Position numbers and translations under genes: made by a program
Notes under the pieces: model-generated
Databases searched by the model: none
What the model saw: only the letters and a program-made list of their open reading frames with translations
Told to the model about the DNA's origin: nothing
Source: Candidatus Micrarchaeia archaeon
GTDB lineage: Archaea; Micrarchaeota; Micrarchaeia; Anstonellales; Bilamarchaeaceae
Assembly (NCBI GenBank): GCA_046538155.1
Contig: JBKHJL010000002.1
Location: forward strand, 1 to 61,195
Length of the DNA: 61,195 nt
Direction of reading: 5' to 3'
In this document: positions 23,522 to 54,306 of the stretch, piece by piece
Position numbering within the stretch: position 1 is the first letter of the stretch
Layout of the letters: each line of letters begins with the position of its first letter

Positions 23522-23525
23522 TCGG

Positions 23526-25091: not shown

Positions 25092-25116
25092 ATAAGTAAT
25101 ATTATTTGGTGAACAT

Positions 25117-26013: not shown

Positions 26014-26016
26014 GGG

Positions 26017-36170: not shown

Positions 36171-36581
36171 ATGCATGCCCAAAAGTTCAGGAATTACCTC
36201 AGGGACCGCTTTGGAATTATTCTTCCAGGAGGTGTGGAGCTTGTGGGAGAAAAGTCCCTCCGTGCGATGAACTCAGAACTCAAAAATTTCAGGGTTTCCA
36301 CTCCAAAGGGAATTCCCGCATCCCGCATGAAGGGAAAGTTTCCCAAGCCGACTACCAGCTTTATCCAGATTTTCGGAAATCTCGCAAAAAAGAATATTGT
36401 GGAGGTTTCCAGGGAAGAGGCCCTGAAGTTCATGGCAGGCAGGGACTTGGAAAAAAATCCTTCCTGTGAAAGGGGATATGTAATACTTACCCACAGGAAA
36501 GCAGTTCTCGGAATCGGCTTTTTCAGGGAAGGGAAAATAGAGAACATGATTCCAAAAGGAAGGAGAATCACTCCAGGATGA
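36171..36581 (+). CDS. PUA-like RNA-binding protein (Nip7/UPF0113-like)
   Basis: The C-terminal half EEALKFMAGRDLEKN...GYVILTHRKAVLGIGFFREGKIENMIPKGRRI resembles PUA-domain proteins. It is located next to an RNA methyltransferase and LeuRS. Confidence 0.45.
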   Translation: MHAQKFRNYLRDRFGIILPGGVELVGEKSLRAMNSELKNFRVSTPKGIPASRMKGKFPKPTTSFIQIFGNLAKKNIVEVSREEALKFMAGRDLEKNPSCERGYVILTHRKAVLGIGFFREGKIENMIPKGRRITPG

Positions 36582-39294
36582 TTGCAGGCTTTCCCGGAGC
36601 AGCCGCAGCCGCCTTTTCATGCTCCGCCCCCTCTTCTTTTCCAACAACTACTTCAGCACCGGTTTCCCTGGAAAGGAAATCTTTTGCATCTTCCAGTGCC
36701 CCCAGTTCTTCCTCTTCCCCGAGCACAGCCGGAAGCGAATGCACCTTCTTAAGAAGGGATTTTGCAAATTTTGAAGCTGCCCCCATATCCTCCACTCTGT
36801 TTGCCTTTGCCCATTCAATCCCTGCCCGCATATTCTTATTTTCCCGGACTTCCCTGTATATCCCCCTTTTCCAGGGGGCCGCAGCGTAAATATAAATTTT
36901 TGAAGTTTTTTTCCCAAACCTCTGTTCTATGTTTTCCACATCCCGCAGCACTTCCGCGATTAACTCTTCTCCCATCTCAACTGCATCATCTATCGCGTCA
37001 TATTCCGGCTCAGGGTATTTCTGCTCAACAGCCAGCCCTTCTTTTCCGTATCCTGACCAGAGCTCTTCTGCAAGGTGGGGCATGAACGGGGAGAAAGCGA
37101 TGCACCATTTTTCCAGGAATTCCCCGAGCGCCGGAGTTCCGGAGCGTTTCAGGTACCATTGTAATTCCTGGACGGTTTCATAGAAAAGCATCTGCCCCAG
37201 CTCCCTTATCTGCATTCCTGAATAAAGAATCTGCGCATCCCTGAGTTTCCTGTTGAGGCGGGAGCGCAGCCATTTTCCTGCCCGCGATTCATCCGTGCCC
37301 TTCCCATATTCAAGAAGGGAGAGCATGTATTCGGCCCTTTCCTTAACCCCCTCAGCAATGCTTGTTTCAAAGTTGGTGTCCTGGGGGAGGTCTGCCCCTC
37401 CCACCACAGAGAATCTTATCACATCTGCCCCGTATTTCTTTATCGCTTCCCTTAGGGGGAGGATGTTCCCAAGCGATTTGCTCATTTTCTTTCCTTCCAT
37501 GAGCACAAACCCGTTTACGATTATGCTCTCGGGCCACTGGGCTTTTGGAAATACTGCAGCATGGTTGAATATAAAGAAGGGAAGATGGTTTCTTACAAGG
37601 TCTGCCCCGGAATGCCTTGCATCAAGAGGATACCAGTAGAGGAATATCTTCCTCAGCTTCTCTGCTTGCGGGTGCACCTCTTTATCCCCATTCCCCAGGA
37701 ATACATAATCAAAAAATTCTTCAGTAAGCTCTTCCGGCTCTATTCCTGAAAGCTCATGGGCAATGGTGTAAAATGCCATGTAGATTGTGGAATCCGAAAG
37801 CGGCTCCACAATCTTGCCCTCGTTAAAGGGGAAAGGCGTGCCCAGCCCGGAAGATCTTGTGCATGCTTTTCTCTTCAGCCAGTCTATTGTATGCAGGTAA
37901 TCCTTCCTGGTCTTTTCAGGTATAAGCGACATTTCTGCCAGGCACTCTTTTGCCTTTGTTTTCCATTCTTCGTCCCCGTAGTTGATGAACCACTGGTTTT
38001 CCACCTTTTTTACCGATATCCTTTCCCCGCATCTGCAGAATACCGGCCCATTTGCAATCACGTAAATTGTGAACGCCTGTTTTTCCGAGATGAGTTTATC
38101 TGCAACCTTTTCTTTTGCCTCAAGCACAGGCACCCCTTCAAATTCCCCGATGCTCATCCTTCCTTTATGCGCTTCTTTCTTGTAAAGCTCCTTTGTTGCA
38201 ACCTCTGCTTTCACATCCCCCTGGCTTCCAACACCCAGTTTTTCAACAATTCCTTTTGCAGGAATCTCCACAGCTCCTGGAAAAGAGAGAACAGGGATAG
38301 GGGGAATCTCCTCCAGCTTCCCCAGGTCCCGGAGCGCAAGGTAATCATATGGCGCATGTGCAGGAACGCTCATTACAATCCCTGCCCCTGTAAAGGAGTC
38401 AACAAAGGACGCAGGAAGCACCGGAACTTCTCTTTTCAGGGGGGTGATTGCTTTTTTCCCCACGAATGCACTTCCCTCCATCTCCTCCAGCACCTCTCCC
38501 TCCATCTGGAGGGAAAGCGCTTTCCAGGCCCCTTTCCCGAAATAAAGCACGCCTTCTTTTGTCTTTACTTTGACTATTTTTGATTTGGGATTTATCCAGA
38601 GGTTGGTTACTCCATACACTGTTTCCGGCCGGTAGGTGCTCACAACAAGGAACTCACCTTTCCCGAGCCCGAACTTGACCGCAGTAACTTCTTCAATTTC
38701 CGGGTCCACATCTCCTCTGGTATCATGCGAGCTCACCACGTTTTTGCAGGAGGGGCACCAGGCAAGCCTGTGGCTTCCCTGTGTGATGTATCCCAGCTCA
38801 TGCAGCTTTTTCATCTGCCACTGGATGAATTTGCCGAAATGCCTGTCAAATGTGTAGAATTTTCTCCTCCAGTCTATTGAATATCCCATTTCTCTCATTC
38901 CCTCTTCAATCTCACCTGAAAAATACATCACAAGCTTTTCCGGGTCGCCCAGCCCGGCCAGCTTTTCTTCTGGAATCCCATAGATGTCCCGGAATATCCC
39001 CAGTAGCTCTTCATCCCCCTCTCTTATTTTTTTTGCCATGGCCAGGATAGGAGTGCCAGTTACATGGAATGCCATAGGCAGGAGCACATTTTTCCCCTTT
39101 AGCCTTGCATATCGTGCGTGGATATCCAGAATAGTGTATGTTCTTCCGTGGCCTATATGCTGGGGGGAGTTAGGGTAGGGGAAGGCAGCAGTGTAGAATT
39201 GCTTTTCCCCACCTTCATCCCTAGGACTATACGCTCCCTTTTTTTCCCACATTTCCTGCCACTTTTTTTCCATATCCCTAAATTCCATAAGCAT
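36568..39294 (-). CDS. leuS: leucyl-tRNA synthetase, archaeal type
   Basis: HIGH motif PYPNSPQHIGHGRTY, KMSKS motif KKMSKSLGN, a CP1 editing insertion and an archaeal-type C-terminal extension. Confidence 0.95.
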   Translation of the reverse strand: MLMEFRDMEKKWQEMWEKKGAYSPRDEGGEKQFYTAAFPYPNSPQHIGHGRTYTILDIHARYARLKGKNVLLPMAFHVTGTPILAMAKKIREGDEELLGIFRDIYGIPEEKLAGLGDPEKLVMYFSGEIEEGMREMGYSIDWRRKFYTFDRHFGKFIQWQMKKLHELGYITQGSHRLAWCPSCKNVVSSHDTRGDVDPEIEEVTAVKFGLGKGEFLVVSTYRPETVYGVTNLWINPKSKIVKVKTKEGVLYFGKGAWKALSLQMEGEVLEEMEGSAFVGKKAITPLKREVPVLPASFVDSFTGAGIVMSVPAHAPYDYLALRDLGKLEEIPPIPVLSFPGAVEIPAKGIVEKLGVGSQGDVKAEVATKELYKKEAHKGRMSIGEFEGVPVLEAKEKVADKLISEKQAFTIYVIANGPVFCRCGERISVKKVENQWFINYGDEEWKTKAKECLAEMSLIPEKTRKDYLHTIDWLKRKACTRSSGLGTPFPFNEGKIVEPLSDSTIYMAFYTIAHELSGIEPEELTEEFFDYVFLGNGDKEVHPQAEKLRKIFLYWYPLDARHSGADLVRNHLPFFIFNHAAVFPKAQWPESIIVNGFVLMEGKKMSKSLGNILPLREAIKKYGADVIRFSVVGGADLPQDTNFETSIAEGVKERAEYMLSLLEYGKGTDESRAGKWLRSRLNRKLRDAQILYSGMQIRELGQMLFYETVQELQWYLKRSGTPALGEFLEKWCIAFSPFMPHLAEELWSGYGKEGLAVEQKYPEPEYDAIDDAVEMGEELIAEVLRDVENIEQRFGKKTSKIYIYAAAPWKRGIYREVRENKNMRAGIEWAKANRVEDMGAASKFAKSLLKKVHSLPAVLGEEEELGALEDAKDFLSRETGAEVVVGKEEGAEHEKAAAAAPGKPAIILE

Positions 39295-39329: not shown

Positions 39330-39338
39330 TTTATATTT
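39330..39338 (+). promoter_or_regulatory. TATA box (tttatattt) for the six-gene membrane-protein operon; predicts a leaderless mRNA starting near ATG 39361
   Basis: The box is centred about 27 nt upstream of ATG 39361 in the divergent leuS intergenic region. Confidence 0.45.
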
Positions 39339-39360: not shown

Positions 39361-40584
39361 ATGAGCGGGCCACCAGTACTCATGCAAGTTTTACCCCTGC
39401 TCCAGGCCGGTGAGGTTTCATGGCTGGGCCAGGAGGTTTCCCAGAATCCCATGGTCACCAGCCTTCTTCCCATTGCCCTTATTACTGCAGCATTTATTGT
39501 AACCCTATACTACCTTATCGGAAAGGCCCTGAGCTCTCCCCAAGTGAATGCATTTGCCACGGAGGAGTTCTCCCAGCTCCTGATTTCTGTTTTTATTGCG
39601 GTTGCCTGGTTTGCGGTTTATGGTGCGCTTGCAGGGGCAACGTCCCTGGCAATATGCTATCCTGAGTATTGTGACCATTTTGATATTGCATTCTATTCGC
39701 TGGACATGCTTTTTTACAAGCTTCTTTCCACATACATCGGGTACACCACAATAGAAATTTTCGTGGGCCTTGTTTCAAGCCTGGGTTTCAGCGTTCCTCT
39801 GAAGGCTCCGGTGCTTGCAGTAAAGTTCCTTAGCTTTTCTCCTTATTCGGGAATGGGAATGCTGAGCAATTCAATAGTCGGGATACTGGAGAGCCTGGGG
39901 ATGTTCATAGGGCTTGTTGTGGGGAGGCGGCAGCTCCTTACCTTTTTCTATGAGATAACCCCCATGTTCCTCCTTCCGTTCGGGCTTTTCCTGCGCGCCT
40001 TCCCCTTCACCAGGAAAACAGGCTCCAGCATAATAGCAATAGCGTTTGCAGGGTTTTTCATCTTCCCTGCCTCAATAATACTTTCCCACTACATGATGTT
40101 CGGGACAAGCGGCCACCTTGCTTATATCCCCATGGCACCAACCCCCACCGGGCTCTGCACCGCTCCGGAAAACCCGGAGGATGAGGCAGCCGCCCTTGCA
40201 TATCTCAACCAGTCAAACACGGAAGTGAGGGAGCATCTGGCTGAAGACCTCAGCGTTTCCGCTTCATATGAAGGCAACTGGTACCAGTTTTCCGGGCTGG
40301 CTAATTCAATATATTCCTGGATTGCCGAGGCCTTTGGTGAGTCTTGGGGGGTTGTTTCAGAGAAATTTTCGTTTTATTCCCTTTTTGACCTGCTCAAGCC
40401 CACCACATTTGCTTATTTCTTTTATTTCCTGATACTGGAGCACCTTCAGGCATTTGCCCAGGTCGCAGTAATGACGATAGTGACTTTCGTGCTTGAGATA
40501 ATAATTACGGTTACCGGATACCGCGCAATATCAGCGGCGCTTGGCGGAGAGCTGGAAATCCTCGGCCTCACAAAGGTGGTATGA
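39361..40584 (+). CDS. paralog P1, polytopic membrane protein of unknown family
   Basis: The track ORF begins at TTG 39337, inside the TATA box, so I prefer ATG 39361. Motifs: SSPQVNAFATEEF, LLPFGLFLRAFPFTRKTGSS (nt 39991-40014 encode LRAFPFTR) and C-terminal LGGELEILGLTKVV. Confidence 0.75.
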   Translation: MSGPPVLMQVLPLLQAGEVSWLGQEVSQNPMVTSLLPIALITAAFIVTLYYLIGKALSSPQVNAFATEEFSQLLISVFIAVAWFAVYGALAGATSLAICYPEYCDHFDIAFYSLDMLFYKLLSTYIGYTTIEIFVGLVSSLGFSVPLKAPVLAVKFLSFSPYSGMGMLSNSIVGILESLGMFIGLVVGRRQLLTFFYEITPMFLLPFGLFLRAFPFTRKTGSSIIAIAFAGFFIFPASIILSHYMMFGTSGHLAYIPMAPTPTGLCTAPENPEDEAAALAYLNQSNTEVREHLAEDLSVSASYEGNWYQFSGLANSIYSWIAEAFGESWGVVSEKFSFYSLFDLLKPTTFAYFFYFLILEHLQAFAQVAVMTIVTFVLEIIITVTGYRAISAALGGELEILGLTKVV

Positions 40585-41549
40585 TGTCTCTCCTGGGAAC
40601 ATATCTTCCGATAGTCGGAATAACCGTGCTCGCAGTTGTTGCATACATCTCAATAGTGACCATCGCCGCATTTGCTCTGAGGCGACCCCAGCTTGCCGCT
40701 TACGCAAGAATAGAATCTTATCAGCTGTTCCTCTCATTCCTCATACTTGTTGCCGCATTTGCGGCCATGGAGTTCTCCACCGCAGTCTCCACTGCAATTT
40801 CAGGGGCACCTCCCGGTGAAACGGCAATAGATATCGCAGTGGGTTTTCTGGAAAAGGTAATCCATGAAGGAATCCTGCCCATCTACCTCAAGCTTGTGCG
40901 GATGGAAGTGTTTCTTACTTATTTCAATGCGGTTGAGTACAGGATGGGCCCGGGGGTATGGAACTGGATTACAAAAGCGGTTCCCGGACTTGACCCGATA
41001 CTTTCCCTTGTAAGGATGCTTGTTTTCACCTTCACTGCCCTCTACGGAACAATGAGCGTCCAGATAATAATTTTCCACCTGATTGATGCGGTGATGTATT
41101 TCTACGTACTGCCCGCAGGAGTGATATTGCGGTTTTTCCCGCCCACGCGGGATGCAGGAGTGTACCTGATAGTGTTAGCCATAGCATTCCAGGCCTTTTT
41201 TCCTATGTTTTATGCAATAAATTATGCTGCCTTGGGTGACATGTGGGAGATGCACGGATGGGCGGACCCGGACAGCACCGGCATTTATGACAGTTATACC
41301 CCGGATATTGAAGACACAAACTACTTCGAAAGCGTTAATTCAGCACTTGGCACTGTGACCGGAATAGCAGATACATATTTCAACTGGGCCCTCCCCATTT
41401 TCCAGCCCTTCACCTTCACAGTACTGGTCCCCTTCCTGGACAGGGTTGCCCAGATTTCCCTGGTCGGGCTGTTTCTCCCGGCCCTTTCAATGAGCATCAC
41501 AATAGCCTTAATTAATGCGGTGACCAAGTTCATCACCGGGAAGGGATAG
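40581..41549 (+). CDS. paralog P2, polytopic membrane protein of unknown family
   Basis: RRPQLAAYARIESY and VLPAGVILRFFPPTRDAGVY (nt 41127-41150). The C-terminus is diverged (INAVTKFITGKG). Confidence 0.75.
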   Translation: MMSLLGTYLPIVGITVLAVVAYISIVTIAAFALRRPQLAAYARIESYQLFLSFLILVAAFAAMEFSTAVSTAISGAPPGETAIDIAVGFLEKVIHEGILPIYLKLVRMEVFLTYFNAVEYRMGPGVWNWITKAVPGLDPILSLVRMLVFTFTALYGTMSVQIIIFHLIDAVMYFYVLPAGVILRFFPPTRDAGVYLIVLAIAFQAFFPMFYAINYAALGDMWEMHGWADPDSTGIYDSYTPDIEDTNYFESVNSALGTVTGIADTYFNWALPIFQPFTFTVLVPFLDRVAQISLVGLFLPALSMSITIALINAVTKFITGKG

Positions 41550-41550
41550 A

Positions 41551-42813
41551 ATGGTTCTGGAATTATGGACACACTGGGGCGGGCTTGCCGGTGTCGGGAT
41601 AATGCTGGCAGTTGCATTCGCAGTGCTTGTTTATCTTCTCGGAAGTTTCCTGAACAACGACAGGATGAGGGCTTTCGGCCGGCTTGAGGTTGTGGAGGCT
41701 TTCTATTCTGCAGTCCTTCTGGTACTTATCTTCTGGATTCTTGCAACCGCAACCGGCACAGCGGAGGCCCTGATAGTGAGCGCCTACCCGGGCGATATAG
41801 GGGCAGCAGTATGCGGCGCCCAGTATGATGCTTATTTCAATGATTATGATGGCGCGTTTCCCTGCCACATGCGCACCGCCCGCTTCTATCTTGACCAGCT
41901 CTATGCAGAGGGCAAGGTCTTCAATTATGAACTCCTTTCAATCCACATGTGGTATTCTTTTATGCAGAACATCGGGGTTTCCGCGGATTTTCATGCACAC
42001 AGCACTGGCTCTGCAAATTACTCCCCACTCGGCTCCATTTTCAGCCTTCCCTCTTCCATTTATTCTTACATGTTTGAGATAGGAATGAAGTCCATGGTAG
42101 TGATACGCTTCCAGCAGTTCCTGCTGAATTTCATAAACTACTCGCTTTTCCCGGTGCTCCTGGTGCTTGGGCTCCTGTTGCGCACATTCCCGTTCAGCCG
42201 TCGTCTTGGGGGGCTGCTCATGGCCATGGCAATTTCCCTCTATTTTATTTACCCGATGTTCTATGTGCTCGGGGGGATAATCTTTGACAATATTGCTATG
42301 AAGAGCGCCTATTATTCGGGAGGCCCAACAGTGGATGAAAACGGAAACATAAAGCGCCCTTCAGTAATTACCTCTCTTGAATTTAACCCAGAGGAGTTTT
42401 ACGATAAGGTGGGGATTACAGATGAAGATAGTGCCCTCCTGCCATCAGGGGACGAGGTTCCGGGCAATAACCAGGAAGATATAACCCTTGATTATATTGA
42501 CCAGCTTTACCCTGAGGAAATGGAGATGTGCCGGAGCTCGGACACAGGGATTGTGGATGGGATTTCTATGATATGGGACTGGGCAAAATTGTTCCTTTAT
42601 GAGATTGATTTTACCGGGCTGATAATCTCAAATGAGGATTATATAGATTCCCTTATTTCCCCTGGTGGGGTAATAGATGCCACAGCCCGTTTTGTGTTTT
42701 TTTCAATGTTTTTTGCCCTGCTTTCAATATTTTCCACAGTCGCCGCAACAAGGAGCCTTTCCCCGCTCCTTGGAGGAGACATAGAGCTCGCCGGGCTTAC
42801 CCACCTGCTATGA
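41551..42813 (+). CDS. paralog P3, polytopic membrane protein of unknown family, with ~125-aa acidic loop
   Basis: NNDRMRAFGRLEVV, LGLLLRTFPFSRRLGGL (nt 42178-42201) and C-terminal LGGDIELAGLTHLL. Confidence 0.75.
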   Translation: MVLELWTHWGGLAGVGIMLAVAFAVLVYLLGSFLNNDRMRAFGRLEVVEAFYSAVLLVLIFWILATATGTAEALIVSAYPGDIGAAVCGAQYDAYFNDYDGAFPCHMRTARFYLDQLYAEGKVFNYELLSIHMWYSFMQNIGVSADFHAHSTGSANYSPLGSIFSLPSSIYSYMFEIGMKSMVVIRFQQFLLNFINYSLFPVLLVLGLLLRTFPFSRRLGGLLMAMAISLYFIYPMFYVLGGIIFDNIAMKSAYYSGGPTVDENGNIKRPSVITSLEFNPEEFYDKVGITDEDSALLPSGDEVPGNNQEDITLDYIDQLYPEEMEMCRSSDTGIVDGISMIWDWAKLFLYEIDFTGLIISNEDYIDSLISPGGVIDATARFVFFSMFFALLSIFSTVAATRSLSPLLGGDIELAGLTHLL

Positions 42814-42823
42814 GGTCACAGAA

Positions 42824-43945
42824 ATGAAGACAAAAGTTTTGTTTCTGGTGCTGCTGGTCCTGTCTGCAGGGTTTGCCCAGTCTGTGGACCCGGAGCTGAA
42901 GGAGGCTGAGCAGGATGTGATGGAAACTGCCAGTGAACTTCTCCAGGAAATAGGGGTAACCAAAGACACATGCGCCCCGGATGAAGGCCCGCTTGACCTT
43001 GCCGGCCCCTCAGCCATAGCCCTGCTGGTTATCGGGGTGGGGCTGGCAATATTCTACATGGCGGCAAGTTTCTTCAATTCCCCGCAGATGCTCGCCATGG
43101 CAAAGCAGGAGGGCTTTGAGTTTATCCATACACTCATTATTATCGTGCTGTTCCTGAGCTTCCTTTCATTTGCCCAGGGCCTTTTGGGCATCCATGGGGT
43201 TGGTCCCTTTGATGTATATTCAAAAGCGATGGAGTACTGTGTAATCATGGTGCAGAAGATAACAGGGGATATGTTCTGGCTGGGATTTTTCAACAATATT
43301 GTTTATCTTGTTTACAGTTCTCCCCTCAGGATAGGCATCCTGCACCAGGCCATCCATTTCAATCTGGGCGGAGTACTCAAGCCCCTGGTGGACGGGATGG
43401 GCACGATGGCTTCCCTGCTTTCCTTTGCCATGGGGGAGTGGATTATCCAGCTGATTCTGCTCTGCGTAATAAAGAAGCACATGCTCACCGTTTTCCTTCC
43501 CCTCGGAATCCTCCTTAAAACCTTTCCCCAGACGAGGGGAGGGGGAAACGCAATAATCGCCATCGCAATAGCCCTTTCCCTAATCTATCCAATGATGATT
43601 GTGGTGAATTACCAGGCATACCAATACCGCTACGGCCAGATGGATGCAGTAAGCGGAATAGGGGAAATCCTGGGCGACTGGACAATTTCCGGCGGAACTC
43701 TTGCCACAGCTGCTGTGAGTCTTTTCCTACTGAAGGGGCTGCTAAAGACGCTCCCGGGGATAGTGCTGCTCAGCTGGCTGGTGACGGTTTTCTTTGACCT
43801 TTATGCGGACGTGATTTACACGGTTTTTGTGCTGAGTATTTTCCTTCCCCTTCTCAATATTTTTGTTACATTTACTTTTGCAAGGGAGATAGCGAAATAC
43901 TTCGGCACAGAGATAAATATTGCAGCTTTTACCAAGCTGATATGA
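42824..43945 (+). CDS. paralog P4, polytopic membrane protein of unknown family, with Sec-type signal peptide
   Basis: The N-terminus MKTKVLFLVLLVLSAGFAQS is signal-peptide-like. Motifs: NSPQMLAMAKQEGF, FLPLGILLKTFPQTRGGGNA (nt 43514-43537) and C-terminal FGTEINIAAFTKLI. Confidence 0.75.
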   Translation: MKTKVLFLVLLVLSAGFAQSVDPELKEAEQDVMETASELLQEIGVTKDTCAPDEGPLDLAGPSAIALLVIGVGLAIFYMAASFFNSPQMLAMAKQEGFEFIHTLIIIVLFLSFLSFAQGLLGIHGVGPFDVYSKAMEYCVIMVQKITGDMFWLGFFNNIVYLVYSSPLRIGILHQAIHFNLGGVLKPLVDGMGTMASLLSFAMGEWIIQLILLCVIKKHMLTVFLPLGILLKTFPQTRGGGNAIIAIAIALSLIYPMMIVVNYQAYQYRYGQMDAVSGIGEILGDWTISGGTLATAAVSLFLLKGLLKTLPGIVLLSWLVTVFFDLYADVIYTVFVLSIFLPLLNIFVTFTFAREIAKYFGTEINIAAFTKLI

Positions 43946-43954
43946 GGTGGAAAA

Positions 43955-44995
43955 ATGCCATATGAGATGCTTGCAACACAGGTCTGCTCCCCCGAGAACA
44001 TGCTGATTCCGGACTGGCAGGCCTTGGCAGTTGTTGCAATGGCAGCCTCCGCAGCCCTCCTTGGCCTTCTTTATGCAATAAATCGGTTTTTTGGAAACGA
44101 AGCCGGAGAGGCCGCAGTCAAGATTGAGCTTTTTGAGCTTTTCACAACCGTGTTCATAGTTGTGGTGGTATTTGCCCTGCTTAACTCCGTATGCGGGTAT
44201 GATGCAAGCAGCCTGGTAATTGCACCAAGCGGTTTTGAGCAGGGCATCAATATTTTTGACGGGGCAGCCCAGGTTCTTGATGAATTTTCAACAAAGCTGG
44301 TGATAATCGCCTCCCTGCTCCACACCATTTACATCCCGCTGGATTTCACCACTTCTACCACCCTCAGCCAGCACCCCCTGGGCATGGGAACCGCTTTCCA
44401 GCCCACAGGCGGATTTGGAGCTATCATGAAGCCACCCCTTGTGCAGTCTTTCCAGATGGTTGCTGTAGCATTCATAATTATACGCGCCCAGCTTCTTGTG
44501 CTGGATTTTGTTACCTTTGCTTTCCTCAAATACTACCTCCCGATAGGGATAATTCTGCGTTCCTTCACTCCCACCCGCAGGATAGGCGGAACAATCATAG
44601 GACTCACCTTAGGCATGGTAATTGTGTATCCCCTTCTGATAATACTCAACGGGTTCATGCTTGACGGACTTGACATACTGGATACATCCAATCTTCCCCA
44701 GTATTTTGGGGCGCTGCTTTCTGCAGCTTTTGAGCCGCTCAGGAATTCAACGGATGCCCTTTCTCTGTATGAGCCCCTGAGCATTCTGCGATTCGGAAAG
44801 CTGGTGGTAACAGGCTTTTTCGGGGGGATTGTTTCTATTTACTATGGGCTGCTAATGCGCACCGCAGCAGTGGCTTTCCTTGTGGGGCTTTTTTTCCCTG
44901 CATTCAATACACTTTTACTTGTTACCACGATAAGATACCTTACGAAGACACTTGGTGAAGAGATTGATATTACCAATCTTACGAGGCTGATATGA
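43955..44995 (+). CDS. paralog P5, polytopic membrane protein of unknown family
   Basis: A GAGGTGG Shine-Dalgarno lies upstream. Motifs: GNEAGEAAVKIELF, YLPIGIILRSFTPTRRIGGT (nt 44555-44578) and C-terminal LGEEIDITNLTRLI. Confidence 0.75.
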   Translation: MPYEMLATQVCSPENMLIPDWQALAVVAMAASAALLGLLYAINRFFGNEAGEAAVKIELFELFTTVFIVVVVFALLNSVCGYDASSLVIAPSGFEQGINIFDGAAQVLDEFSTKLVIIASLLHTIYIPLDFTTSTTLSQHPLGMGTAFQPTGGFGAIMKPPLVQSFQMVAVAFIIIRAQLLVLDFVTFAFLKYYLPIGIILRSFTPTRRIGGTIIGLTLGMVIVYPLLIILNGFMLDGLDILDTSNLPQYFGALLSAAFEPLRNSTDALSLYEPLSILRFGKLVVTGFFGGIVSIYYGLLMRTAAVAFLVGLFFPAFNTLLLVTTIRYLTKTLGEEIDITNLTRLI

Positions 44996-46038
44996 TGGAC
45001 GGTTGGATAATGATATCTGCAGTTGCGGTAATGCTTTCTGCACTGCTTGCAGCAATAATGATAATGGCCTCCCGCCTTATGCAGCTTCCTGACCTTGAGC
45101 AATGGGCAAAGTCCGAGCTGGTCTTCTCCCTTTCTACGGTTTTTGTATTGCTTTTCCTGATTTCCATAATTGAGTTTGCCGAGCCTCTCCTGGTAGACGT
45201 GATAAAGGAGATTACCGAATTCAATTTCGGGCAGCAGAGTGGCCAGATACCTGTGATCCCCTCAGGGGAAGAGGCCACTCTCATGGACTATGCCCTTGCT
45301 TACATGCACTCTGTTTTTTCCTGCATAAAATCATTTTTCAAGTTTCTGCTGAAGCTAAATTTTCCCCTGGAATTAGCAGCTTCATTCAGCGTGGATGTTT
45401 TCATGTTTGATGCAGTAGGGGGATGGGCTTACAAGGGTCCGGTCCAGACAATCAAGAATTTAACCAATTACATAACATTTACTCTATTCATATACTACCT
45501 GTTCATACACATTATGCGCTTTCTTGAGGCAACTGCTCTCACAATATTCATTCCCCTGGGGATAATTCTCAGGCAGTTCCCACCTACCCGGGGCTCGGGT
45601 GCATTCATACTTTCCTTTGCAATAGGTTTTTACATTGTGTTCCCGCTTGCCTATCTGCTCGTGGTTAATGTGGTTCCCCAGACATTTGCCTGCCCGGTCC
45701 TCCCTGAATTTGAGCACCTGGCTGACCTTTCGGGATATGGGGTGGGGAATGTTCATACTGTTTCTGATATGATTCTTTGGTCTGATGCCCACCAGAGCGG
45801 CGTCTGGAACACCTTTAGCGGTGTAGGCGGATACCTTGCAGGCTTTGACCTTGATCCTTTTGGAGTAATTCCTGATGCGGTTGAGTTTACTGCGGGAAGG
45901 GTTGCAGGATTTTCCATAAATCTCTGCTGCCTCCCGTTCCTTGCAATGATAATAACAATGAGTTTCATTCTCTCCAGCACGAACCTTTTCGGAGCCAATC
46001 TTCCTGAAATCGGGAGGGGGTTCATCAAGTTAATCTGA
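44992..46038 (+). CDS. paralog P6, polytopic membrane protein of unknown family
   Basis: QLPDLEQWAKSELV, FIPLGIILRQFPPTRGSGAF (nt 45568-45591) and C-terminal FGANLPEIGRGFIKLI. Confidence 0.75.
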   Translation: MMDGWIMISAVAVMLSALLAAIMIMASRLMQLPDLEQWAKSELVFSLSTVFVLLFLISIIEFAEPLLVDVIKEITEFNFGQQSGQIPVIPSGEEATLMDYALAYMHSVFSCIKSFFKFLLKLNFPLELAASFSVDVFMFDAVGGWAYKGPVQTIKNLTNYITFTLFIYYLFIHIMRFLEATALTIFIPLGIILRQFPPTRGSGAFILSFAIGFYIVFPLAYLLVVNVVPQTFACPVLPEFEHLADLSGYGVGNVHTVSDMILWSDAHQSGVWNTFSGVGGYLAGFDLDPFGVIPDAVEFTAGRVAGFSINLCCLPFLAMIITMSFILSSTNLFGANLPEIGRGFIKLI

Positions 46039-47007
46039 TTTGCGGAACAGGTAGTGGTAGAATGGGTTTTTTTCCACCCCTCTTTTCAGGAGCTCAATAT
46101 CATACCCCTCTTTCTCAAGTTTTTTTGCTTCCGCCTCTATTTCAGCGGCATCCATGTAGTCCAGCTTTTCAACTTCTACTGCAAAAAGTTTCTGGTCCAG
46201 CATTCTCCCTACAAAATCGTCCTGCGCCTCCACTCTGCCCCCGCATTTTTTCTCCAGCCACCCGAAATCAACATCAACAGTGTACTGCTCTCCGTACTTC
46301 CTCACAACCGAGCTGTTCCATATTTCCGGGGTAAGCGCTTCCATTTCCCCTTCTCCGCAGAATCCATACTCAAAAATGCTTATTCCTCCACCACCAATGA
46401 TTTTTCTCTTCCATTTTTCCACCAGCTTAATTGCCTCAATGTTCACAGGAACCCAGTAGCCCTCAGGGACGCTCTCCATCCTTTCTCTTGCAATCGCGGG
46501 AATACCTGGCTGCTCCCATATAGCAAGTTCCCCGTTGTTCCAGCCCACTTCGTAAGTCTTTCCCCTCTGTTTCATAAATACTCTTGCAGGGATGTCATCT
46601 AGTATTTCATTCCCCCGTATCCAGAATGCATTGCCCATTTTTTCTGCTTCTTCTGCAGGGGCACACACGGATTCAACCGCATGTCCCTCCAGCTTTTCCT
46701 CTGCCCCATCCAGCATTTTCCTGCTTATGTCCCATAATGTATATGCGATTCTCTTGCCCACGGAAGGGTCTATCCTGTTCAGGTTTTCAAGGAATTTTTT
46801 GGCAAAATTGCCGTCCCCCACCCCAAATTCATAAATCCTGAGTTCTCCCTCAGTTTCCCGCGCACTCTCCAGGAATTCCAGTGCACAGGCCCTGCCCAGC
46901 CTTGCGGATGCTGCAAATGTCTTGAAATCCTGGTAGATGTGTTTTCCCCTCTCAGGGTAATACCTGCGGTTGGTCCTCTCCATAAGCTTTGCAATATTCT
47001 CCATCAT
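46030..47007 (-). CDS. class I SAM-dependent methyltransferase (MidA/COG1565-like)
   Basis: SAM motif I is RIYEFGVGDGNFAKKF. The ORF track extends to 47151 across the start of the divergent gene. ATG 47007 (MMENIAKL...) leaves a 49-nt AT-rich intergenic region. Confidence 0.6.
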   Translation of the reverse strand: MMENIAKLMERTNRRYYPERGKHIYQDFKTFAASARLGRACALEFLESARETEGELRIYEFGVGDGNFAKKFLENLNRIDPSVGKRIAYTLWDISRKMLDGAEEKLEGHAVESVCAPAEEAEKMGNAFWIRGNEILDDIPARVFMKQRGKTYEVGWNNGELAIWEQPGIPAIARERMESVPEGYWVPVNIEAIKLVEKWKRKIIGGGGISIFEYGFCGEGEMEALTPEIWNSSVVRKYGEQYTVDVDFGWLEKKCGGRVEAQDDFVGRMLDQKLFAVEVEKLDYMDAAEIEAEAKKLEKEGYDIELLKRGVEKNPFYHYLFRKSD

Positions 47008-47056
47008 ATCTTCCCTGGCCCGAAACAAATAATAATCATGTTCATGATATACCCGC

Positions 47057-47614
47057 ATGCAGCAGTTCGTACTTGACACAAGCCTTTTTGTCAACCCCGA
47101 CTGCAGGAAGCAGTTTGGGAAAACGCCATATTCTTCGGTTTCCGGATTCATAAAAAAAGTAAAAACAAAAAAGAAAAAAGCAGAGTTCTACATGCCCCCC
47201 ATAGTGTTCAGGGAGCTTTCTCATTTCACTGAAAAAGGCGCCTCCCGGCTTTCGACTGCAGTGAAGAAACGCGCCCCAAATCTCTATGGGATTTACATCC
47301 CTGCAGCAATCCTCTACACCTTTATAGATGATGTGCGGATGCGGGTAAATAAGGGCCTGAGGCTCGCAGAGGAGTTTGCCAGGGACAATAAGCCGGACAA
47401 CCGGGCAAAGCTCAACAAGCTCCGGGCAAAGTACCGGGAGGCGATGCGCCGGGGGATGGTTGATTCCAAGGAAGACCTTGAGGTTATCCTGCTTGCCTAT
47501 GAGCTTGGGGCAACAATTGTGACCTCGGATGAGGGGATGGTTGAGATGGCAAATAAGATAGGTGTTGAATGGATAGAGGCGGAGAGGTTCGCCGCACTCC
47601 TAAAATCAATTTGA
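47057..47614 (+). CDS. HARP-family PIN-like protein (homolog of Aquifex protein-only RNase P; 'RNA ligase partner' UPF0278 family)
   Basis: The N-terminus QQFVLDTSLFVNPD and C-terminus KYREAMRRGMVDSKEDLEVILLAYELGATIVTSDEGM closely match the Aq_880/HARP signature as I recall it (FVLDTSVFTNPD ... [33 protein letters not shown]). The size (185 aa) fits. Confidence 0.75.
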   Translation: MQQFVLDTSLFVNPDCRKQFGKTPYSSVSGFIKKVKTKKKKAEFYMPPIVFRELSHFTEKGASRLSTAVKKRAPNLYGIYIPAAILYTFIDDVRMRVNKGLRLAEEFARDNKPDNRAKLNKLRAKYREAMRRGMVDSKEDLEVILLAYELGATIVTSDEGMVEMANKIGVEWIEAERFAALLKSI

Positions 47615-47659
47615 TTTAAAAATATTTCTTTAGCCTAATTCCCGCGTTTGGTGATTTTT

Positions 47660-48106
47660 ATGCCCTCCAGAAAAATCCACAAATCTGCCCCGCTGGCTGA
47701 ACGCAGCCCCACCCTCCGTAAGGCAGGAGGGGTTTCAGGACTCCAGCGCCTCCCCCGCTGGGAAAAATATCTTAAGCTGGGGGATGCTGCAGAGGAGCTG
47801 GGTCTTGGCCTGGCACATCTTGAATGGAGAATCCGGGCGTATTTCACTGCGCTGGAATGCGGAGAGTATCCTGCCGCACAGAAAATAGGGATGCGCCATT
47901 TTAGCGAAAAAGAGGTGCGCGTTGCCGAAAGCCTTCAGGTGCTCGGGGAAAATGCCCGCTCCGGGAGGCTAAACTCAGAGTTGCGGCCTCTTGCCGAGGA
48001 TGCCCTTTCAGCAGGGGTTCCGCGGGAACTGGTTGCATGGGAGCTTGCAAAACATCGTGCTCCTGGCCTGAATTTTAGGAGCTGGAAAAGTATTATGCAG
48101 CCTTAG
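47660..48106 (+). CDS. hypothetical protein, R/A/G/L-rich, possible HTH
   Basis: The ORF lies between the HARP and RNA ligase genes. YLKLGDAAEELGLGLAHLEWRIR could be an HTH. Its composition differs from the K/E-rich neighbours, so coding status is uncertain. Confidence 0.4.
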   Translation: MPSRKIHKSAPLAERSPTLRKAGGVSGLQRLPRWEKYLKLGDAAEELGLGLAHLEWRIRAYFTALECGEYPAAQKIGMRHFSEKEVRVAESLQVLGENARSGRLNSELRPLAEDALSAGVPRELVAWELAKHRAPGLNFRSWKSIMQP

Positions 48107-48112: not shown

Positions 48113-49180
48113 CTAATCTGCCTGAGCATACCCTTTTATTGCCCTCCTCACCCTCCTGCTCCCCTTCTTGTAAACTTTTCTGAATTTTATTCTTGTTCCC
48201 CCGTTTTCTTTTTTTTCCGAATCAACCTCTATCCGGACCTCATCCGACATGTGCTCCAGGACTTTTTTCCAGATTTTCTTTTTTTTCACGAGCACTTCAA
48301 ATTTCTCGCTCACTTCTCCTCCCTTCTTTATTGCGGTATAAAGGTTTTTGTGCAGAGCCCTGCCCATCCTCTCATCATATTTATCTTTGTCCAGGCCCAG
48401 TTCAGAAATGGATATTGCGCTCCTGAAGACTCTCTGCTTCATGAATCCTGCAGGCATATCAAATATCATGTGTGAGTTTTTTGCAAGGTCTTCTATCTCA
48501 GAAGAAGGCACTACATATTTGATTATTTTCCTCGGGTTTTGCTGTTTTAGAACAATTCCTTCTCCTCCGCTTCTTTCCACCTGTATCGCTGCTTTTTTAA
48601 GTTCCCTGGAATCCGGATTCTCCAGTTTCTTTACCAGTGGTGCGGATTCCATTCCATATTTCCTGCAGAGTTTTCTTTTTTCCCTTGTTGAACTGAAATC
48701 AAGCTTTCCGTCGCTTATGTCAAACACATAATATTTTACATCATATTTTTTTGCAGGCGGGGTGTAGGGGGTGCACCCAACCATTTCCATGTGAAGAACT
48801 TTTTCCGGGTGGTCTTTGAAGAATTCCACAACCTCTTCCATGTCCAAAATTTTCTCTGTTGCAAAATAGTCCAGGAATCCTCCACGTGAAAGGCACACAA
48901 GCTCTCCTCCCTCGCAGGCAACCCGCAGGTTGAATCCGTCAATCTTTTCCTCTACCCATGTCTCCTTGTTCTCAAGGTTCCTTTCCGCTCCCCTGGAAAG
49001 CGAAAAAACCCTTCTTATTTTCGGGTAACCATAAACAACCCGCTCTCCGATTATCACTGTTCCCCGCGGAATATTCCCTATCCTGTCTGAGAAGCGGTAG
49101 ATTCCGTCCCTCTGTTCTATCTTCCCTTTTCTGATTGCATCCCTGACTTTTTTCCTCAGCCCCTTATTAAGTTCCTTCAT
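48113..49180 (-). CDS. ATP-dependent RNA ligase, Pab1020/Rnl3 family
   Basis: The nucleotidyltransferase motif I is VEEKIDGFNLRV (KxDG), and EGIVLK is a motif IV-like segment. The track ORF extends to 49297 through a K/R-rich stretch that overlaps the antiporter 3' end. I prefer ATG 49180 (MKELNKGLRKK...). Confidence 0.75.
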   Translation of the reverse strand: MKELNKGLRKKVRDAIRKGKIEQRDGIYRFSDRIGNIPRGTVIIGERVVYGYPKIRRVFSLSRGAERNLENKETWVEEKIDGFNLRVACEGGELVCLSRGGFLDYFATEKILDMEEVVEFFKDHPEKVLHMEMVGCTPYTPPAKKYDVKYYVFDISDGKLDFSSTREKRKLCRKYGMESAPLVKKLENPDSRELKKAAIQVERSGGEGIVLKQQNPRKIIKYVVPSSEIEDLAKNSHMIFDMPAGFMKQRVFRSAISISELGLDKDKYDERMGRALHKNLYTAIKKGGEVSEKFEVLVKKKKIWKKVLEHMSDEVRIEVDSEKKENGGTRIKFRKVYKKGSRRVRRAIKGYAQAD

Positions 49181-50513: not shown

Positions 50514-51026
50514 CTACCAGGGTACTTTCTTAAGCCCTGCCCTGTTTGCCGCAAGGTTTGCCCCCATGTGGAGCAGGTATGACACAACCAGTATGAATGC
50601 GATGTTTGGAAGGACATATACTTCTTTTGCAAAAGGGTATGCAAAAACCAGAGCCCCTATCACGAAGTCTGCCTGGTCAAGCACCTTTGAATGCATCCCG
50701 GGTTTAATCCCCATCCTTCTTTTTATGAAGCTCCCGCCCGCATCCCCGACCAGGGCCCCCACTGCGAGCATTGAGCCGGAAAGGAAAAGCACTTCGCGGT
50801 TTCCAAAAAGCAGCGTGGGCCAGGCAAGCGAGATAAGCCCTGATGCAAGTACACCCGCTGCAATTCCCCCGGCGAATCCCTGCACCGTTTTGGTTTTTCC
50901 AAACAGCCCCATCCCGTCCCCGAGCTTAATTCCGCCGTCAAGGCGGTACCCACCTCCAATAAGTACGGGTGCGGCATTCGCGACGTAGCATGGAAGCATG
51001 AATGCAAGGAGCTCCAGAAACACCAT
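50514..51026 (-). CDS. carS: CDP-archaeol synthase (CarS, DUF46 family)
   Basis: LPCYVANAAPVL...LDGG...GDGMGLFGKTKTVQGFAGG...GDAGGSFIKRRMGIKPG...LDQADF matches the CarS pattern as I recall it. Confidence 0.75.
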   Translation of the reverse strand: MVFLELLAFMLPCYVANAAPVLIGGGYRLDGGIKLGDGMGLFGKTKTVQGFAGGIAAGVLASGLISLAWPTLLFGNREVLFLSGSMLAVGALVGDAGGSFIKRRMGIKPGMHSKVLDQADFVIGALVFAYPFAKEVYVLPNIAFILVVSYLLHMGANLAANRAGLKKVPW

Positions 51027-53591: not shown

Positions 53592-53631
53592 CTCCGGTGT
53601 GTTTAAAAGCTTTTATTTTAGAATTATATCG

Positions 53632-54297: not shown

Positions 54298-54306
54298 GGT
54301 TTCCCC

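Follow-up and report, generated by a model that had tools for sequence, protein, structure and literature searches.

A six-gene tandem array of paralogous membrane proteins in Micrarchaeota, the possible subunits of one membrane complex

VirB6 is modelled with an outward N-terminus, five transmembrane (TM) helices, of which TM2 and TM3 are separated by a large extracytoplasmic domain, and a cytoplasmic C-terminus. The Tweety (TTYH) proteins, confined to eukaryotes to our knowledge, also show an N-out, five-TM, C-in arrangement, with an extracellular helical bundle built from extended TM helices. FliP, FliQ and FliR, structurally related subunits built as helical hairpins, sit at positions that are not equivalent in a pseudo-hexameric helical ring. 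In MCM2-7 and Rpt1-6, the six ring positions are taken by diverged paralogs, and Rpt1-6 attach to a partner ring through their conserved C-terminal tails. In the inner membrane, VirB6 assembles into a pentameric platform shaped like a funnel (PMC12624023). Five VirB6 paralogs (RvhB6a-e) are present in Rickettsia (PMC2653234), and Bartonella genomes were found to contain several copies of TrwI.

The array described here lies in a window of 61,195 nucleotides from Candidatus Micrarchaeia archaeon (contig JBKHJL010000002.1, positions 1 to 61,195). Like VirB6/TrbL (TrwI of plasmid R388, RvhB6a-e), its products are predicted to be polytopic and N-out, with about five TM helices, a large domain after TM2, a C-in end and long helices extending past the membrane. 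Conserved multi-paralog sets are shared with some VirB6 lineages (PMC2653234), and a ring or funnel platform, a pentamer in VirB6/TrbL (PMC12624023), is proposed for the array too; a faint Foldseek similarity was also seen. However, profile similarity was absent, the motif set was different, six fixed paralogs were found instead of a homo-pentamer and no T4SS partner genes were found near the array, which is archaeal, chromosomal and phylum-wide whereas VirB6/TrbL is found on mobile elements. TTYH1-3 were the best, non-significant PDB structural matches of the array models, with which they share the five TM helices inferred for the array, the N-out/C-in topology, an extracellular bundle of TM extensions and disulfides in some members. 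Unlike the array proteins, they are homodimers without conserved cytoplasmic loop motifs or such a C-terminal tail, and showed no sequence similarity and TM-scores of ≤0.28. The array resembles FliP/FliQ/FliR (SctR/S/T) in its duplicable helical hairpin and its six retained non-identical subunits, but differs in subunit sizes and stoichiometry and in the absence of FlhA/FlhB or ATPase partners; no Pfam, NCBIfam or Foldseek match of the array proteins to FliP/FliQ/FliR was found. With the LRRC8/connexin-type hetero-hexameric channels, MCM2-7 and Rpt1-6, the array may share the concept alone, an analogy from general knowledge; no relationship was seen in sequence or in fold.

Layout of the array and its six subunits

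The array was found to contain six plus-strand ORFs (window 39361-46038), with products of 407, 322, 420, 373, 346 and 348 aa.

39330..39337, + strand: TATA-like box (TTTATATT), read from the sequence, 24 nt 5' of the gene 1 ATG
39361..40584, + strand: subunit 1, 407 aa, family HMM E = 4e-126
40581..41549, + strand: subunit 2, 322 aa, shortest of the six, family HMM match
41551..42813, + strand: subunit 3, 420 aa, family HMM match
42824..43945, + strand: subunit 4, 373 aa, family HMM match
43955..44995, + strand: subunit 5, 346 aa, family HMM match
44992..46038, + strand: subunit 6, 348 aa, family HMM match

Junctions 1/2 and 5/6 were found to contain 4-nt ATGA overlaps, and the others gaps of 1, 10 and 9 nt, so that the tight coupling described in the earlier note agreed with the ORF coordinates. 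Overlapping start and stop codons, and spacers of 1-10 nt, are as expected of translationally coupled genes. The TATA-like box at 39330, located in the 66-nt divergent intergenic region between leuS and gene 1, is a putative promoter of the array, and its distance of 24 nt from the gene 1 ATG would give a leaderless or near-leaderless operon mRNA. The ATG at 39361 was taken as the start of gene 1; a second possible start, the TTG at 39337, shares sequence with the TATA-like box, and the ATG gives 407 aa, the length of the NCBI-called ortholog P0001 (96% identical).

Subunit 1 was found to contain loop A at aa 54-72, loop B at aa 206-223 and the tail RAISAALGGELEILGLTKVV at aa 388-407, and a Glu in TM5 (VLEIIITVT); its AF2 model had a pLDDT of 74. 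The tail of subunit 2 lacked the acidic GGExE part and ended in ...AVTKFITGKG, and this acidic half was consistently missing in its orthologs. In other lineages, subunit 2 contained an N-terminal signal peptide followed by two additional TM-hairpin repeats. Its AF2 model had a pLDDT of 85.9 and a pTM of 0.79. Subunit 3, with the largest predicted extracellular domains of the six and the tail GGDIELAGLTHLL, had subunit 1 as its nearest paralog. Subunit 4 contained a signal-peptide-like N-terminus (MKTKVLFLVLLVLSAGFAQS) followed by an acidic segment of ~45 aa ahead of TM1, and the tail GTEINIAAFTKLI. Subunit 5, with the tail GEEIDITNLTRLI, had subunit 4 as its nearest paralog. The tail of subunit 6 was ANLPEIGRGFIKLI, and its stop and that of the convergent Methyltransf_28 gene were found to overlap by 9 nt.

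Paralogy, conserved motifs and predicted topology

The six proteins were 21-25% identical in pairs, whereas hhalign of their six position-specific profiles gave probabilities of 98.3-99.8% in all 15 pairs. They matched the family HMM at E = 1e-70 to 4e-126, and the best non-member ORF in the window and 55 related loci reached E = 0.07. Judged from these comparisons, the six products are true paralogs, far beyond chance, in agreement with the diverged paralogs of low identity noted earlier. The motif strings noted earlier were all found in the six proteins. Across 228 sequences (38 non-redundant arrays x 6), the motif A Glu was conserved in 96%, the motif B Gly, Arg, Phe, Arg and Gly in 96%, 97%, 83%, 97% and 100%, respectively, and the Pro in the helix after motif B in 100%, so that the motif A Glu and the motif B Arg, Pro and Gly positions were retained in 96-100% of these orthologs and paralogs. 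The lengths of loop A (19 aa), loop B (12 aa; consensus LRxFPxTRxxG) and the C-terminal tail (20 aa; consensus GGExExxGLTK[LV][IV]-COOH) were found to be constant.

No known-family match was found in Pfam, NCBIfam, PHROGs, PADLOC or the PDB sequences, and Foldseek against the PDB and BFVD gave no confident match, also for a model predicted with confidence (pLDDT 86). The family thus appeared without known relatives, as the earlier note had suspected, in all libraries searched by sequence profile and structure, and no confident match to a characterised family turned up. Neither PF04610 nor the Tweety Pfam family was among the listed matches of the 106 members scanned (E ≤ 1), and the TTYH chains in the PDB sequences were not found by the family profile even at E ≤ 10. 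In hhalign, the family profile and a narrow TrwI/VirB6 alignment (members at least 51% identical) were matched at a probability of 0.27%.

Each subunit is predicted to be N-out and C-in with five TM helices, which would place motif A, motif B and the C-terminal tail on the cytoplasmic side. The conserved Lys/Arg residues were restricted to loop A, loop B and the tail, the N-termini contained no K/R, the large loops were net acidic and signal peptides were found ahead of N-terminal extensions. The 6-8 hydrophobic helices counted earlier are most likely five TM helices and the hydrophobic helices of two extracellular hairpin domains. These helical-hairpin domains, after TM2 and after TM4, were variable in sequence and length (~60 to 174 aa), and the ECD1 helices were unusually hydrophobic. 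Among 106 members, knottin-like C..C..CC..C..C modules followed TM4 in 14 and TM2 in a single one. TM5 contained a polar stripe with i, i+4, i+7, i+11 spacing, the TM1-loop A-TM2 hairpin behaved as a duplicable module, as in the N-terminal repeats, and the AF2 models were all-helical, with helices of 32-49 residues.

Distribution, gene order and neighbourhood

The family profile matched 3,153 metagenome cluster representatives at E ≤ 1e-3, and the named ones all carried Micrarchaeota or close DPANN labels. The genome scan for the array used peptide patterns specific to subunit 1. Exactly six genes were found in every locus with enough contig, namely 41 loci (38 non-redundant arrays, window included) and the two divergent lineages L056 and L058, and all loci with fewer than six matches were cut off by contig ends. 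One further contig (P0058) contained, by gene calls only, six tandem Pfam-less genes followed by a seventh cut by the contig end. No singleton homologs were seen; six stood in tandem wherever the contig left room.

In 41 of 41 loci, the gene at each of the six positions was the ortholog of the window gene at that position, and the six orthologous groups were always ordered 1-6 in complete loci. The duplications therefore predate the radiation of these lineages, with no birth-and-death of copies. Orthologs were down to 20-30% identical across lineages, yet the copy number of six and the order were unchanged. Against the sister species, dN/dS was 0.035, 0.058, 0.044, 0.067, 0.082 and 0.048 for subunits 1 to 6, respectively (0.035-0.082), and purifying selection was uniformly strong. 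The distance matrices of the six paralogs were correlated at r = 0.91-0.96 among themselves; with those of two neighbours, the PIN_5 and RNA ligase genes, r was 0.78-0.90. Controlled for these neighbours, the partial r among the six was 0.49-0.80. This co-variation of rates could stem from a shared membrane environment or function and not from contact.

The conserved neighbours of the array were RNA-processing and housekeeping genes, and a CDP-archaeol synthase gene was found near it in the window organism. In ~41 loci, no linked ATPase, pilin or other partner gene was found near the array, including VirB4/CedB-type ATPases, VirB2-like pilins and other T4SS genes; no S-layer gene was linked to it, and the array, without a plasmid or phage match, is chromosomal. 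The sole ATPase cluster of the window belongs to a type IV pilus (T2SSE/T2SSF); the other loci contained no counterpart of it at distances of up to 10 kb from the array. The pilus clusters were thus not conserved neighbours, and the earlier caution that a link with the pilus is speculation was justified.

A possible single membrane complex and its alternatives

As all six genes were kept in the same order in every relative examined, they most likely encode one membrane machine. The explanation tentatively preferred, at a probability of about 40%, is that the six genes form one operon and that their products, paralogs of ancient origin, are the subunits of an integral-membrane complex of Micrarchaeota not described before. 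In this complex, each paralog would be present once (1:1:1:1:1:1) in an obligate hetero-oligomer, probably arranged as a pseudo-sixfold ring that serves as a conduit or platform. The subunits would pack side by side into such a ring or a short spiral. Its unvarying inner opening, that of a conduit or assembly platform across the cytoplasmic membrane, would be made up of the conserved TM core, TM5 polar stripe included, and of the loops and tails on the cytoplasmic side. The extracellular crown, variable, acidic and sometimes disulfide-rich, would be turned towards the S-layer, a host or the environment. The TM5 stripe could equally serve helix packing. The proteins that the models resemble, in architecture alone, are either pentameric platforms (VirB6) or lack a proven pore (TTYH), which counts against the proposal, as does the RNA-processing and housekeeping nature of the conserved neighbours. 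The hetero-oligomeric assembly suggested in the earlier note was supported, not proven, by the fixed number of six, the order, the coupling, the selection and the co-variation of rates.

A cell-envelope anchor or scaffold is rather unlikely; here the complex would tie a sixfold-symmetric S-layer or other surface structure to the cytoplasmic membrane, with the variable crown as contact surface. The phylum-wide conservation of the array in core-genome neighbourhoods, as for a housekeeping envelope component, and the tall, acidic, sometimes disulfide-stabilised extracellular hairpins are consistent with it. However, the best-conserved parts are cytoplasmic or TM whereas a pure anchor would be expected to have a conserved outer contact surface, an S-layer gene is not linked, and matching six subunits to a sixfold lattice is so far numerology. 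It is unlikely that the array is a very remote VirB6/TrbL/CedA-type platform, in which six paralogs, in place of the VirB6 homo-pentamer, make up the base or funnel in the inner membrane for a filament or a DNA/protein conduit, and the ATPase and pilin are encoded elsewhere in the genome. The loose VirB6 analogy drawn earlier stood as to the predicted topology, which agrees with the published model, and two faint Foldseek matches: TrwI/VirB6 8rt9_F had the top TM-score in the PDB list of the subunit 1 model (TMt 0.34, rmsd 9.3 A), and a phage 'TrbL' model was matched by the subunit 2 model (prob 0.94, TM 0.33/0.30). VirB6 being itself a funnel-shaped pentameric inner-membrane platform (PMC12624023) and the paralog sets of Rickettsia (PMC2653234) and Bartonella TrwI also point this way. 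The analogy did not stand as to the profile (hhalign 0.27% with the narrow alignment, PF04610 unlisted) or the T4SS genes, none of which was close to the array; the Foldseek E-values were 0.17 and 4.7 at TM-scores below 0.35, and the only ATPase cluster of the window, the T2SSE/T2SSF pilus, is unlinked to the array elsewhere.

Six independent channels or transporters, each paralog a homo-oligomer with its own specificity and merely co-regulated by the operon, are improbable. Tandem paralog arrays of transporters are common, and every paralog retained the full core motif set, so that each could be self-sufficient. However, lineage-specific gains and losses are usual in such families, whereas the number and order were invariant in all complete loci; the consistent lack of the acidic tail half in subunit 2, the co-varying rates and the apparent translational coupling also argue for the single complex. 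A TTYH-like family, lipid-handling or anion-related, in which the tall hydrophobic extracellular hairpins bind or shuttle lipids, is very improbable. The top nine PDB Foldseek matches of the subunit 2 model were all TTYH1/2/3 (E 0.07-0.6, prob up to 0.75), TTYH2 was also the top match of the subunit 1 model, the predicted architecture is that of TTYH structures, and the ECD1 helices were unusually hydrophobic. However, TM-scores were 0.16-0.28 at rmsd 15-25 A, none reached E ≤ 0.001, the family profile did not find TTYH chains in the PDB sequences even at E ≤ 10, the Tweety Pfam family was not among the listed matches, and TTYH proteins are dimers from single genes and not six-paralog operons. 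Lipid dependence was not evident, because CDP-archaeol synthase is encoded nearby; were such lipid handling true, it could matter to host-dependent DPANN cells.

The six-gene array and its paralogous proteins

The array was found to contain six genes on the forward strand, coding for subunits 1 to 6 in gene order.

Genes of the array, its neighbours and the two clusters described earlier as pilus-like (window coordinates)
19882-27618, forward strand: type IV pilus-like cluster with a T2SSE ATPase and two T2SSF proteins
36568-39294, reverse strand: leuS, transcribed divergently from the array
39361-40584, forward strand: subunit 1 gene (ORF, 407 aa)
40581-41549, forward strand: subunit 2 gene (ORF, 322 aa)
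41551-42813, forward strand: subunit 3 gene (ORF, 420 aa)
42824-43945, forward strand: subunit 4 gene (ORF, 373 aa)
43955-44995, forward strand: subunit 5 gene (ORF, 346 aa)
44992-46038, forward strand: subunit 6 gene (ORF, 348 aa)
46030-47151, reverse strand: Methyltransf_28 gene, convergent with the array
47057-47614, forward strand: PIN_5 gene (PF08745, E 2e-53, 185 aa)
47648-48106, forward strand: 152-aa ORF with no Pfam match, between annotated housekeeping genes
48113-49297, reverse strand: Pab1020-type RNA ligase, beyond the array
49167-50513, reverse strand: Na+/H+ exchanger, beyond the array
50514-51026, reverse strand: CDP-archaeol synthase (CarS), beyond the array
51125-52195, forward strand: 356-aa ORF with no Pfam match, between annotated housekeeping genes
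53284-57487, forward strand: second 'pilus-like' cluster with no Pfam match, pilus assignment putative

The ORF coordinates gave the junctions reported in the earlier note: two of them are 4-nt ATGA overlaps, and the other three are gaps of 1, 10 and 9 nt. An alternative upstream start of subunit 1 was found at TTG 39337. The ATG at 39361 was preferred because the TTTATATT box (39330-39337) has the TTG at its 3′ edge, the NCBI-called subunit 1 ortholog (96% identical) has 407 aa, and the N-terminus aligns with those of the orthologs from this ATG. The stop codons of subunit 6 and of the convergent Methyltransf_28 gene overlap by 9 nt (window 46030-46038), so that there is no terminator space between the two. 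The PIN_5 ORF and the convergent methyltransferase ORF overlap by 95 nt at the annotated 5′ end of the latter, and one of the two starts is therefore probably over-extended. The RNA ligase, the Na+/H+ exchanger and CarS were found in a synteny block common to the window and a distant Micrarchaeota locus (L002), and the presence of CarS indicates that the organism retains at least part of archaeal lipid synthesis.

The low overall identity of the six proteins noted earlier was reproduced, with global pairwise values of 21-25%, and the position-specific profiles (each from 38 genomes) aligned with hhalign probabilities of 98.3-99.8% in all 15 pairs. With the family HMM, the six proteins of the window gave E values from 1e-70 to 4e-126, and the next-best ORF in the window and 55 related loci gave E = 0.07; this marks a sharp boundary of the family, with exactly six members in the window. 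Both proposed loop motifs held up in 228 sequences. The Glu of motif A, in the loop after the first membrane-spanning helix (TM1), was kept in 96%, and motif B (LRxFPxTRxxG) contained conserved Gly (96%), Arg (97%), Phe (83%), Arg (97%) and Gly (100%), followed by the presence of the Pro of the next helix in 100%. The six-gene array is real and statistically secure. A 3×2 or 2×3 scheme of duplication was rejected, since no clean pattern was found among the six, of which 1-3 and 4-5 were the closest pairs. An internal duplication of the core was not detected between the TM1-2 and TM3-4 hairpins.

Conservation of copy number, order and neighbourhood

A word-indexed search retrieved 59 relatives, all annotated as 'hypothetical' and all without a Pfam domain, and the names among them were Candidatus Micrarchaeota, Ca. 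Bilamarchaeum dharawalense and one record labelled '[Ca.] ainarchaeum sp.' When 1.84 billion cluster representatives were searched exhaustively with the profile, 3,153 proved to be family members at E ≤ 1e-3 and 2,548 at the stricter E ≤ 1e-10, and the family size in clusters at 50% identity was >3,000. The scan of one genome per GTDB species gave 52 loci labelled Micrarchaeota, Micrarchaeia, Bilamarchaeaceae, 'ainarchaeum sp.' or 'archaeon'; it used peptide patterns of subunit 1 orthologs, is biased to subunit 1 motifs and therefore cannot show absence from other phyla. Divergent subunit 1 sequences used as protein queries gave only four matches, with no named cultivated Micrarchaeota strain among them, and the family had no tblastn match in the plasmid and phage collections. 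The closest relative, WJMN01000047.1 (Micrarchaeota Bin_349), showed 91-96% amino-acid identity and a dS of about 0.55-0.77.

In the locus survey, ORFs were called per locus and searched with the family HMM. The strict set of six described earlier was found wherever the sequence suffices, with exactly six tandem matches on one strand in 41 complete loci (38 non-redundant arrays, window included), and the divergent lineages L056 and L058 also contained six matches each. The 7 or 8 matches in two loci were due to single genes split by frameshifts, and all 12 loci with fewer matches end within 277 nt of the last match. By gene calls only, the contig of the family protein P0058 contained six tandem Pfam-less genes followed by a seventh cut by the contig end. 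The protein at each of the six positions had the window gene of the same position as its best BLAST match in 41/41 complete loci, and orthologs were followed down to 20-30% identity across lineages with copy number and order unchanged. The six duplications are therefore older than the split of these lineages. The array is conserved phylum-wide as a rigid six-subunit membrane module.

All six genes showed dN/dS values of 0.035-0.082 against the sister species. The pairwise-distance matrices of the six orthologous groups were correlated at r = 0.91-0.96, compared with r = 0.81-0.90 when the genes for PIN_5 and the RNA ligase next to the array were taken as controls, and 0.78 between these two controls, and partial correlations of 0.49-0.80 were found among the six after the controls were regressed out. 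This co-variation of rates fits subunits of one machine, and contact is not proven by it.

Flanking ORFs were clustered across 41 arrays (the window and 40 related loci), and the recurrent neighbours were all housekeeping genes. PIN_5 was the most conserved, being downstream in 34 of the 41 arrays and on the same strand in 33; its product is of the family of RNA-free RNase P 'HARP' proteins. The Pab1020-type RNA ligase was found near the array in 25 loci and CarS in 15, Methyltransf_28 adjoined the array in 12, and leuS or aspS was present upstream in divergent orientation. The recurrent upstream ORFs, considered as a conserved seventh component, were shadow ORFs within aspS, and the extra ORFs after the array in L001, another related locus, were not family members.

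The cluster at 19882-27618 contained a T2SSE ATPase matched at E 2e-38; it also codes for a 571-aa coiled-coil protein, a 529-aa Pfam-less protein and a 173-aa protein. In the cluster at 53284-57487, the last gene showed a weak, sub-threshold DUF7287 match (E 1e-4, 23 bits, cutoff 27 bits), and homologs of this cluster were found near the array only in L022 and L024. A link of the array to a type IV pilus was rejected, as no T2SSE or T2SSF homolog was present within 10 kb of any other array. The caution with which the pilus had been mentioned was justified, the pilus clusters not being conserved neighbours. Genes for pili, ATPases or transport components are thus not linked to the array in a conserved way.

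Predicted topology and comparison with known families

Family-wide hydropathy was found to contain five strongly hydrophobic segments. Conserved Lys/Arg were confined to the loop after TM1 (loop A, with motif A), the loop after TM3 (loop B, with motif B) and the C-terminal tail. Loop B contained 2-3 K/R and essentially no D/E, the N-termini contained almost no K/R, and both large loops were net acidic. Loop A, loop B and the tail were invariant in length (19, 12 and 20 residues, respectively) and the large loops ranged from ~60 to 174 residues. A knottin-like C-x-C-x-CC-x-C-x-C module was found 40-50 residues after motif B in 14 of 106 members and after TM2 in one. The window subunit 4 contained a signal-peptide-like N-terminal segment and an acidic stretch ahead of TM1. 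The cystine modules, together with the signal peptides of subunit 4 and of an enlarged form of subunit 2, place both large loops outside the cell. From these sequence features we infer the order N-terminus (outside), TM1, loop A (inside), TM2, extracellular helical-hairpin domain ECD1, TM3, loop B (inside), TM4, ECD2, TM5 and tail (inside). Motif A, motif B and the tail would then all lie on the cytoplasmic face, and the outside would evolve freely.

Such knottin/conotoxin-like modules were present in the extracellular domains of ~14% of representative members. The carriers after TM4 were P0083, P0097, P0098, P0102, P0104, P0107, P0108, P0113-P0115, P0118, P0122, P0123 and P0165, and P0168 was the carrier after TM2.

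The conserved C-terminal tail was confirmed within each position, with the patterns GGExEIxGLTKVV, GGDIEIAGLT[HR]LI, [ED][IV]N...F.[KR][IL]I, GEE[VI]D[IV]..LTR[ML]I and NIPE[IV]GRG[LF][VI]KLI. The tail of subunit 2 was reduced to ...TKFIxxK[VG], its acidic half being missing in nearly all genomes. One face of the TM5 helix was lined by conserved polar residues (S/G, P, N/S/E, T, T at i, i+4, i+7, i+11), a stripe which includes a Glu in subunit 1. The AF2 models of subunit 1 (pLDDT 74, pTM 0.67) and subunit 2 (pLDDT 85.9, pTM 0.79) were all-helical with helices of 32-49 residues, and ECD1 was modelled as a long, unusually hydrophobic antiparallel helical hairpin running into TM3. Helix packing was judged from secondary structure and sequence only.

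The earlier statement that the proteins belong to no recognised family stood. Pfam and NCBIfam gave only chance matches below cutoffs for the six proteins, and PHROGs and PADLOC gave none. The Pfam scan of 106 diverse members found no recurrent match in the core, the exception being conotoxin-type matches to the knottin-like inserts. Family profiles searched against all PDB sequences at E ≤ 10 found only two unrelated chains, and Foldseek of the subunit 1 and 2 models against 350,542 PDB chains and BFVD found none at E ≤ 0.001. The family and its fold have no detectable relatives in the libraries searched.

T2SSF (PF00482) was found in none of the six proteins and was not listed for the 106 members, and the genuine T2SSF genes of the window (25117-26013 and 26017-27096) matched at E 6e-18 and 8e-15. 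For ABC domains, neither set had a listed Pfam match, in keeping with the earlier note on ABC-2. MsbA-type chains appeared in Foldseek only at E > 1 (TM about 0.13) and no ATPase gene adjoined the array in any locus. The label 'ABC-type multidrug transport system fused ATPase/permease subunit' of P0019, a subunit 1 ortholog from a JGI metagenome, was supported by neither Pfam, NCBIfam nor fold searches and looks like an annotation artefact. For the FliPQR/SctRST export gates, there was no Pfam or NCBIfam match and none among the Foldseek matches; the only match related to an export gate was a chance FlhB hit (E 0.34, 9 bits against a cutoff of 886).

Proposed assembly of the six subunits and alternative readings

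The suggestion of a hetero-oligomer gained support. On sequence evidence, the data fit an obligate hetero-oligomer with one copy per paralog much better than the alternatives, because the set is strictly six in fixed order with no birth-and-death, and because of translational coupling, uniformly strong purifying selection, rate co-variation and the divergent tail of subunit 2. The most economical geometry would be six non-equivalent positions arranged as a ring or shallow spiral. Homo-hexamers with diverged subunits have given six non-equivalent positions in MCM2-7, Rpt1-6 and the FliP5-FliR1 pseudo-hexamer, to which the proposed ring may be likened. The assembly could be a conduit or platform with its conserved business end toward the cytoplasm and bilayer, and its extracellular crown might contact the S-layer, the environment or a host. 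The composite reading, a hetero-oligomer forming a ring-shaped conduit or platform, is tentative (probability about 0.4); of its two parts, the single complex of six different subunits has a considerably higher probability than the ring-shaped conduit.

A conduit or platform is favoured because the TM core, cytoplasmic loops and tails are invariant while the outside is variable. An array serving as S-layer anchor is unlikely. Cryo-ET of the cultivated micrarchaeon ARM-1 showed a sixfold S-layer lattice and densities extending to the cytoplasmic membrane; these envelope structures could involve an unidentified membrane complex, which is a lead and not evidence. Six separate channels are improbable, as a variable gene number would be expected if the paralogs were independent transporters. 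VirB6 is N-out and C-in, with about five TM and a large extracytoplasmic loop separating TM2 from TM3, and the array proteins are predicted to share this VirB6/TrbL-like topology. The VirB6 analogy extends to this predicted topology and finds no support in sequence profiles or in the genes next to the array. PF04610 (VirB6/TrbL) was not listed for the six proteins, nor for the 106 members at E ≤ 1. A demonstrated homology to VirB6 was rejected, hhalign against the alignment of TrwI of plasmid R388 and its homologs (all fetched homologs carry PF04610, and the alignment is narrow) giving a probability of 0.27% and E 0.23. The matches of TrwI/VirB6 8rt9_F to the subunit 1 model (E 4.7, TMq/TMt 0.25/0.34, rmsd 9.3 Å) and of a phage 'TrbL' model to the subunit 2 model (E 0.17, prob 0.94, TM 0.33/0.30) were below accepted thresholds, and no VirB4-type ATPase, VirB2-like pilin or other T4SS/Ced gene was found within ±10 kb of the arrays, including L056 and L058. 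VirB6/TrbL is an architectural analog at best, and a remote VirB6-like platform is unlikely. VirB6 is a funnel-shaped pentameric platform (PMC12624023), and Rickettsia retain five VirB6 paralogs (PMC2653234); among conserved sets of paralogs of a protein of this kind, theirs is the closest precedent.

The top nine PDB Foldseek matches of the subunit 2 model were TTYH1-3 (E 0.07-0.6, prob 0.30-0.75, TM 0.18-0.28, rmsd 15-24 Å); together with TrwI/VirB6 and the phage 'TrbL' model, these came nearest among the fold matches. Tweety was absent from the listed Pfam matches, and family profiles found no TTYH chain in the PDB at E ≤ 10; a TTYH-like lipid function is very improbable. A hetero-hexameric wide-bore gateway unique to Micrarchaeota, acting as a connexin-like or translocon-like conduit, is a further, improbable reading. 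Gating, or the docking of cytoplasmic partners, would fall to its invariant mouth on the inside (loop A Glu, loop B Arg pair, tails), and its fast-evolving, hydrophobic, sometimes cystine-knotted crown would make contact with the S-layer or a partner cell. If true, it would be the long-sought device for the exchange of metabolites, lipids or macromolecules between these ultrasmall archaea of reduced metabolism and their hosts or neighbours.

Micrarchaeota are ultrasmall archaea; little is known of the way in which their envelope is built and material is traded with hosts, and 'hypothetical' is the annotation of most of their conserved genes. A large family with a fold unmatched among solved ones, a rigid six-gene module and strong purifying selection is the signature of an essential multi-subunit machine rather than of accessory genes. 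The array could reveal a new class of membrane assembly, and would be a clean natural case of a prokaryotic homo-oligomer becoming a fixed-order hetero-oligomer of six paralogs. No description of it was found by full-text searching or in the main Micrarchaeota papers (PMC8784108, PMC11329633, PMC8975820 and PMC12892359).

Enlarged forms of subunit 2

Subunit 2 of many lineages was found to be ~190 aa longer than in the window, as in L019:11236-11910 of a Micrarchaeota MAG, and forms of 500-590 aa were present at position 2 in ~25 loci. No known domains were found in the enlarged variants. The extension contained a cleavable-looking signal peptide followed by the presence of two extra TM-hairpin repeats, the cytoplasmic loops of which (GSEYRAKANQWA, GAQTRAKASVWA) resemble motif A. 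The repeats were detected at 98% probability in the hhalign self-comparison, and the TM1-loop A-TM2 hairpin therefore acts as a duplicable module.
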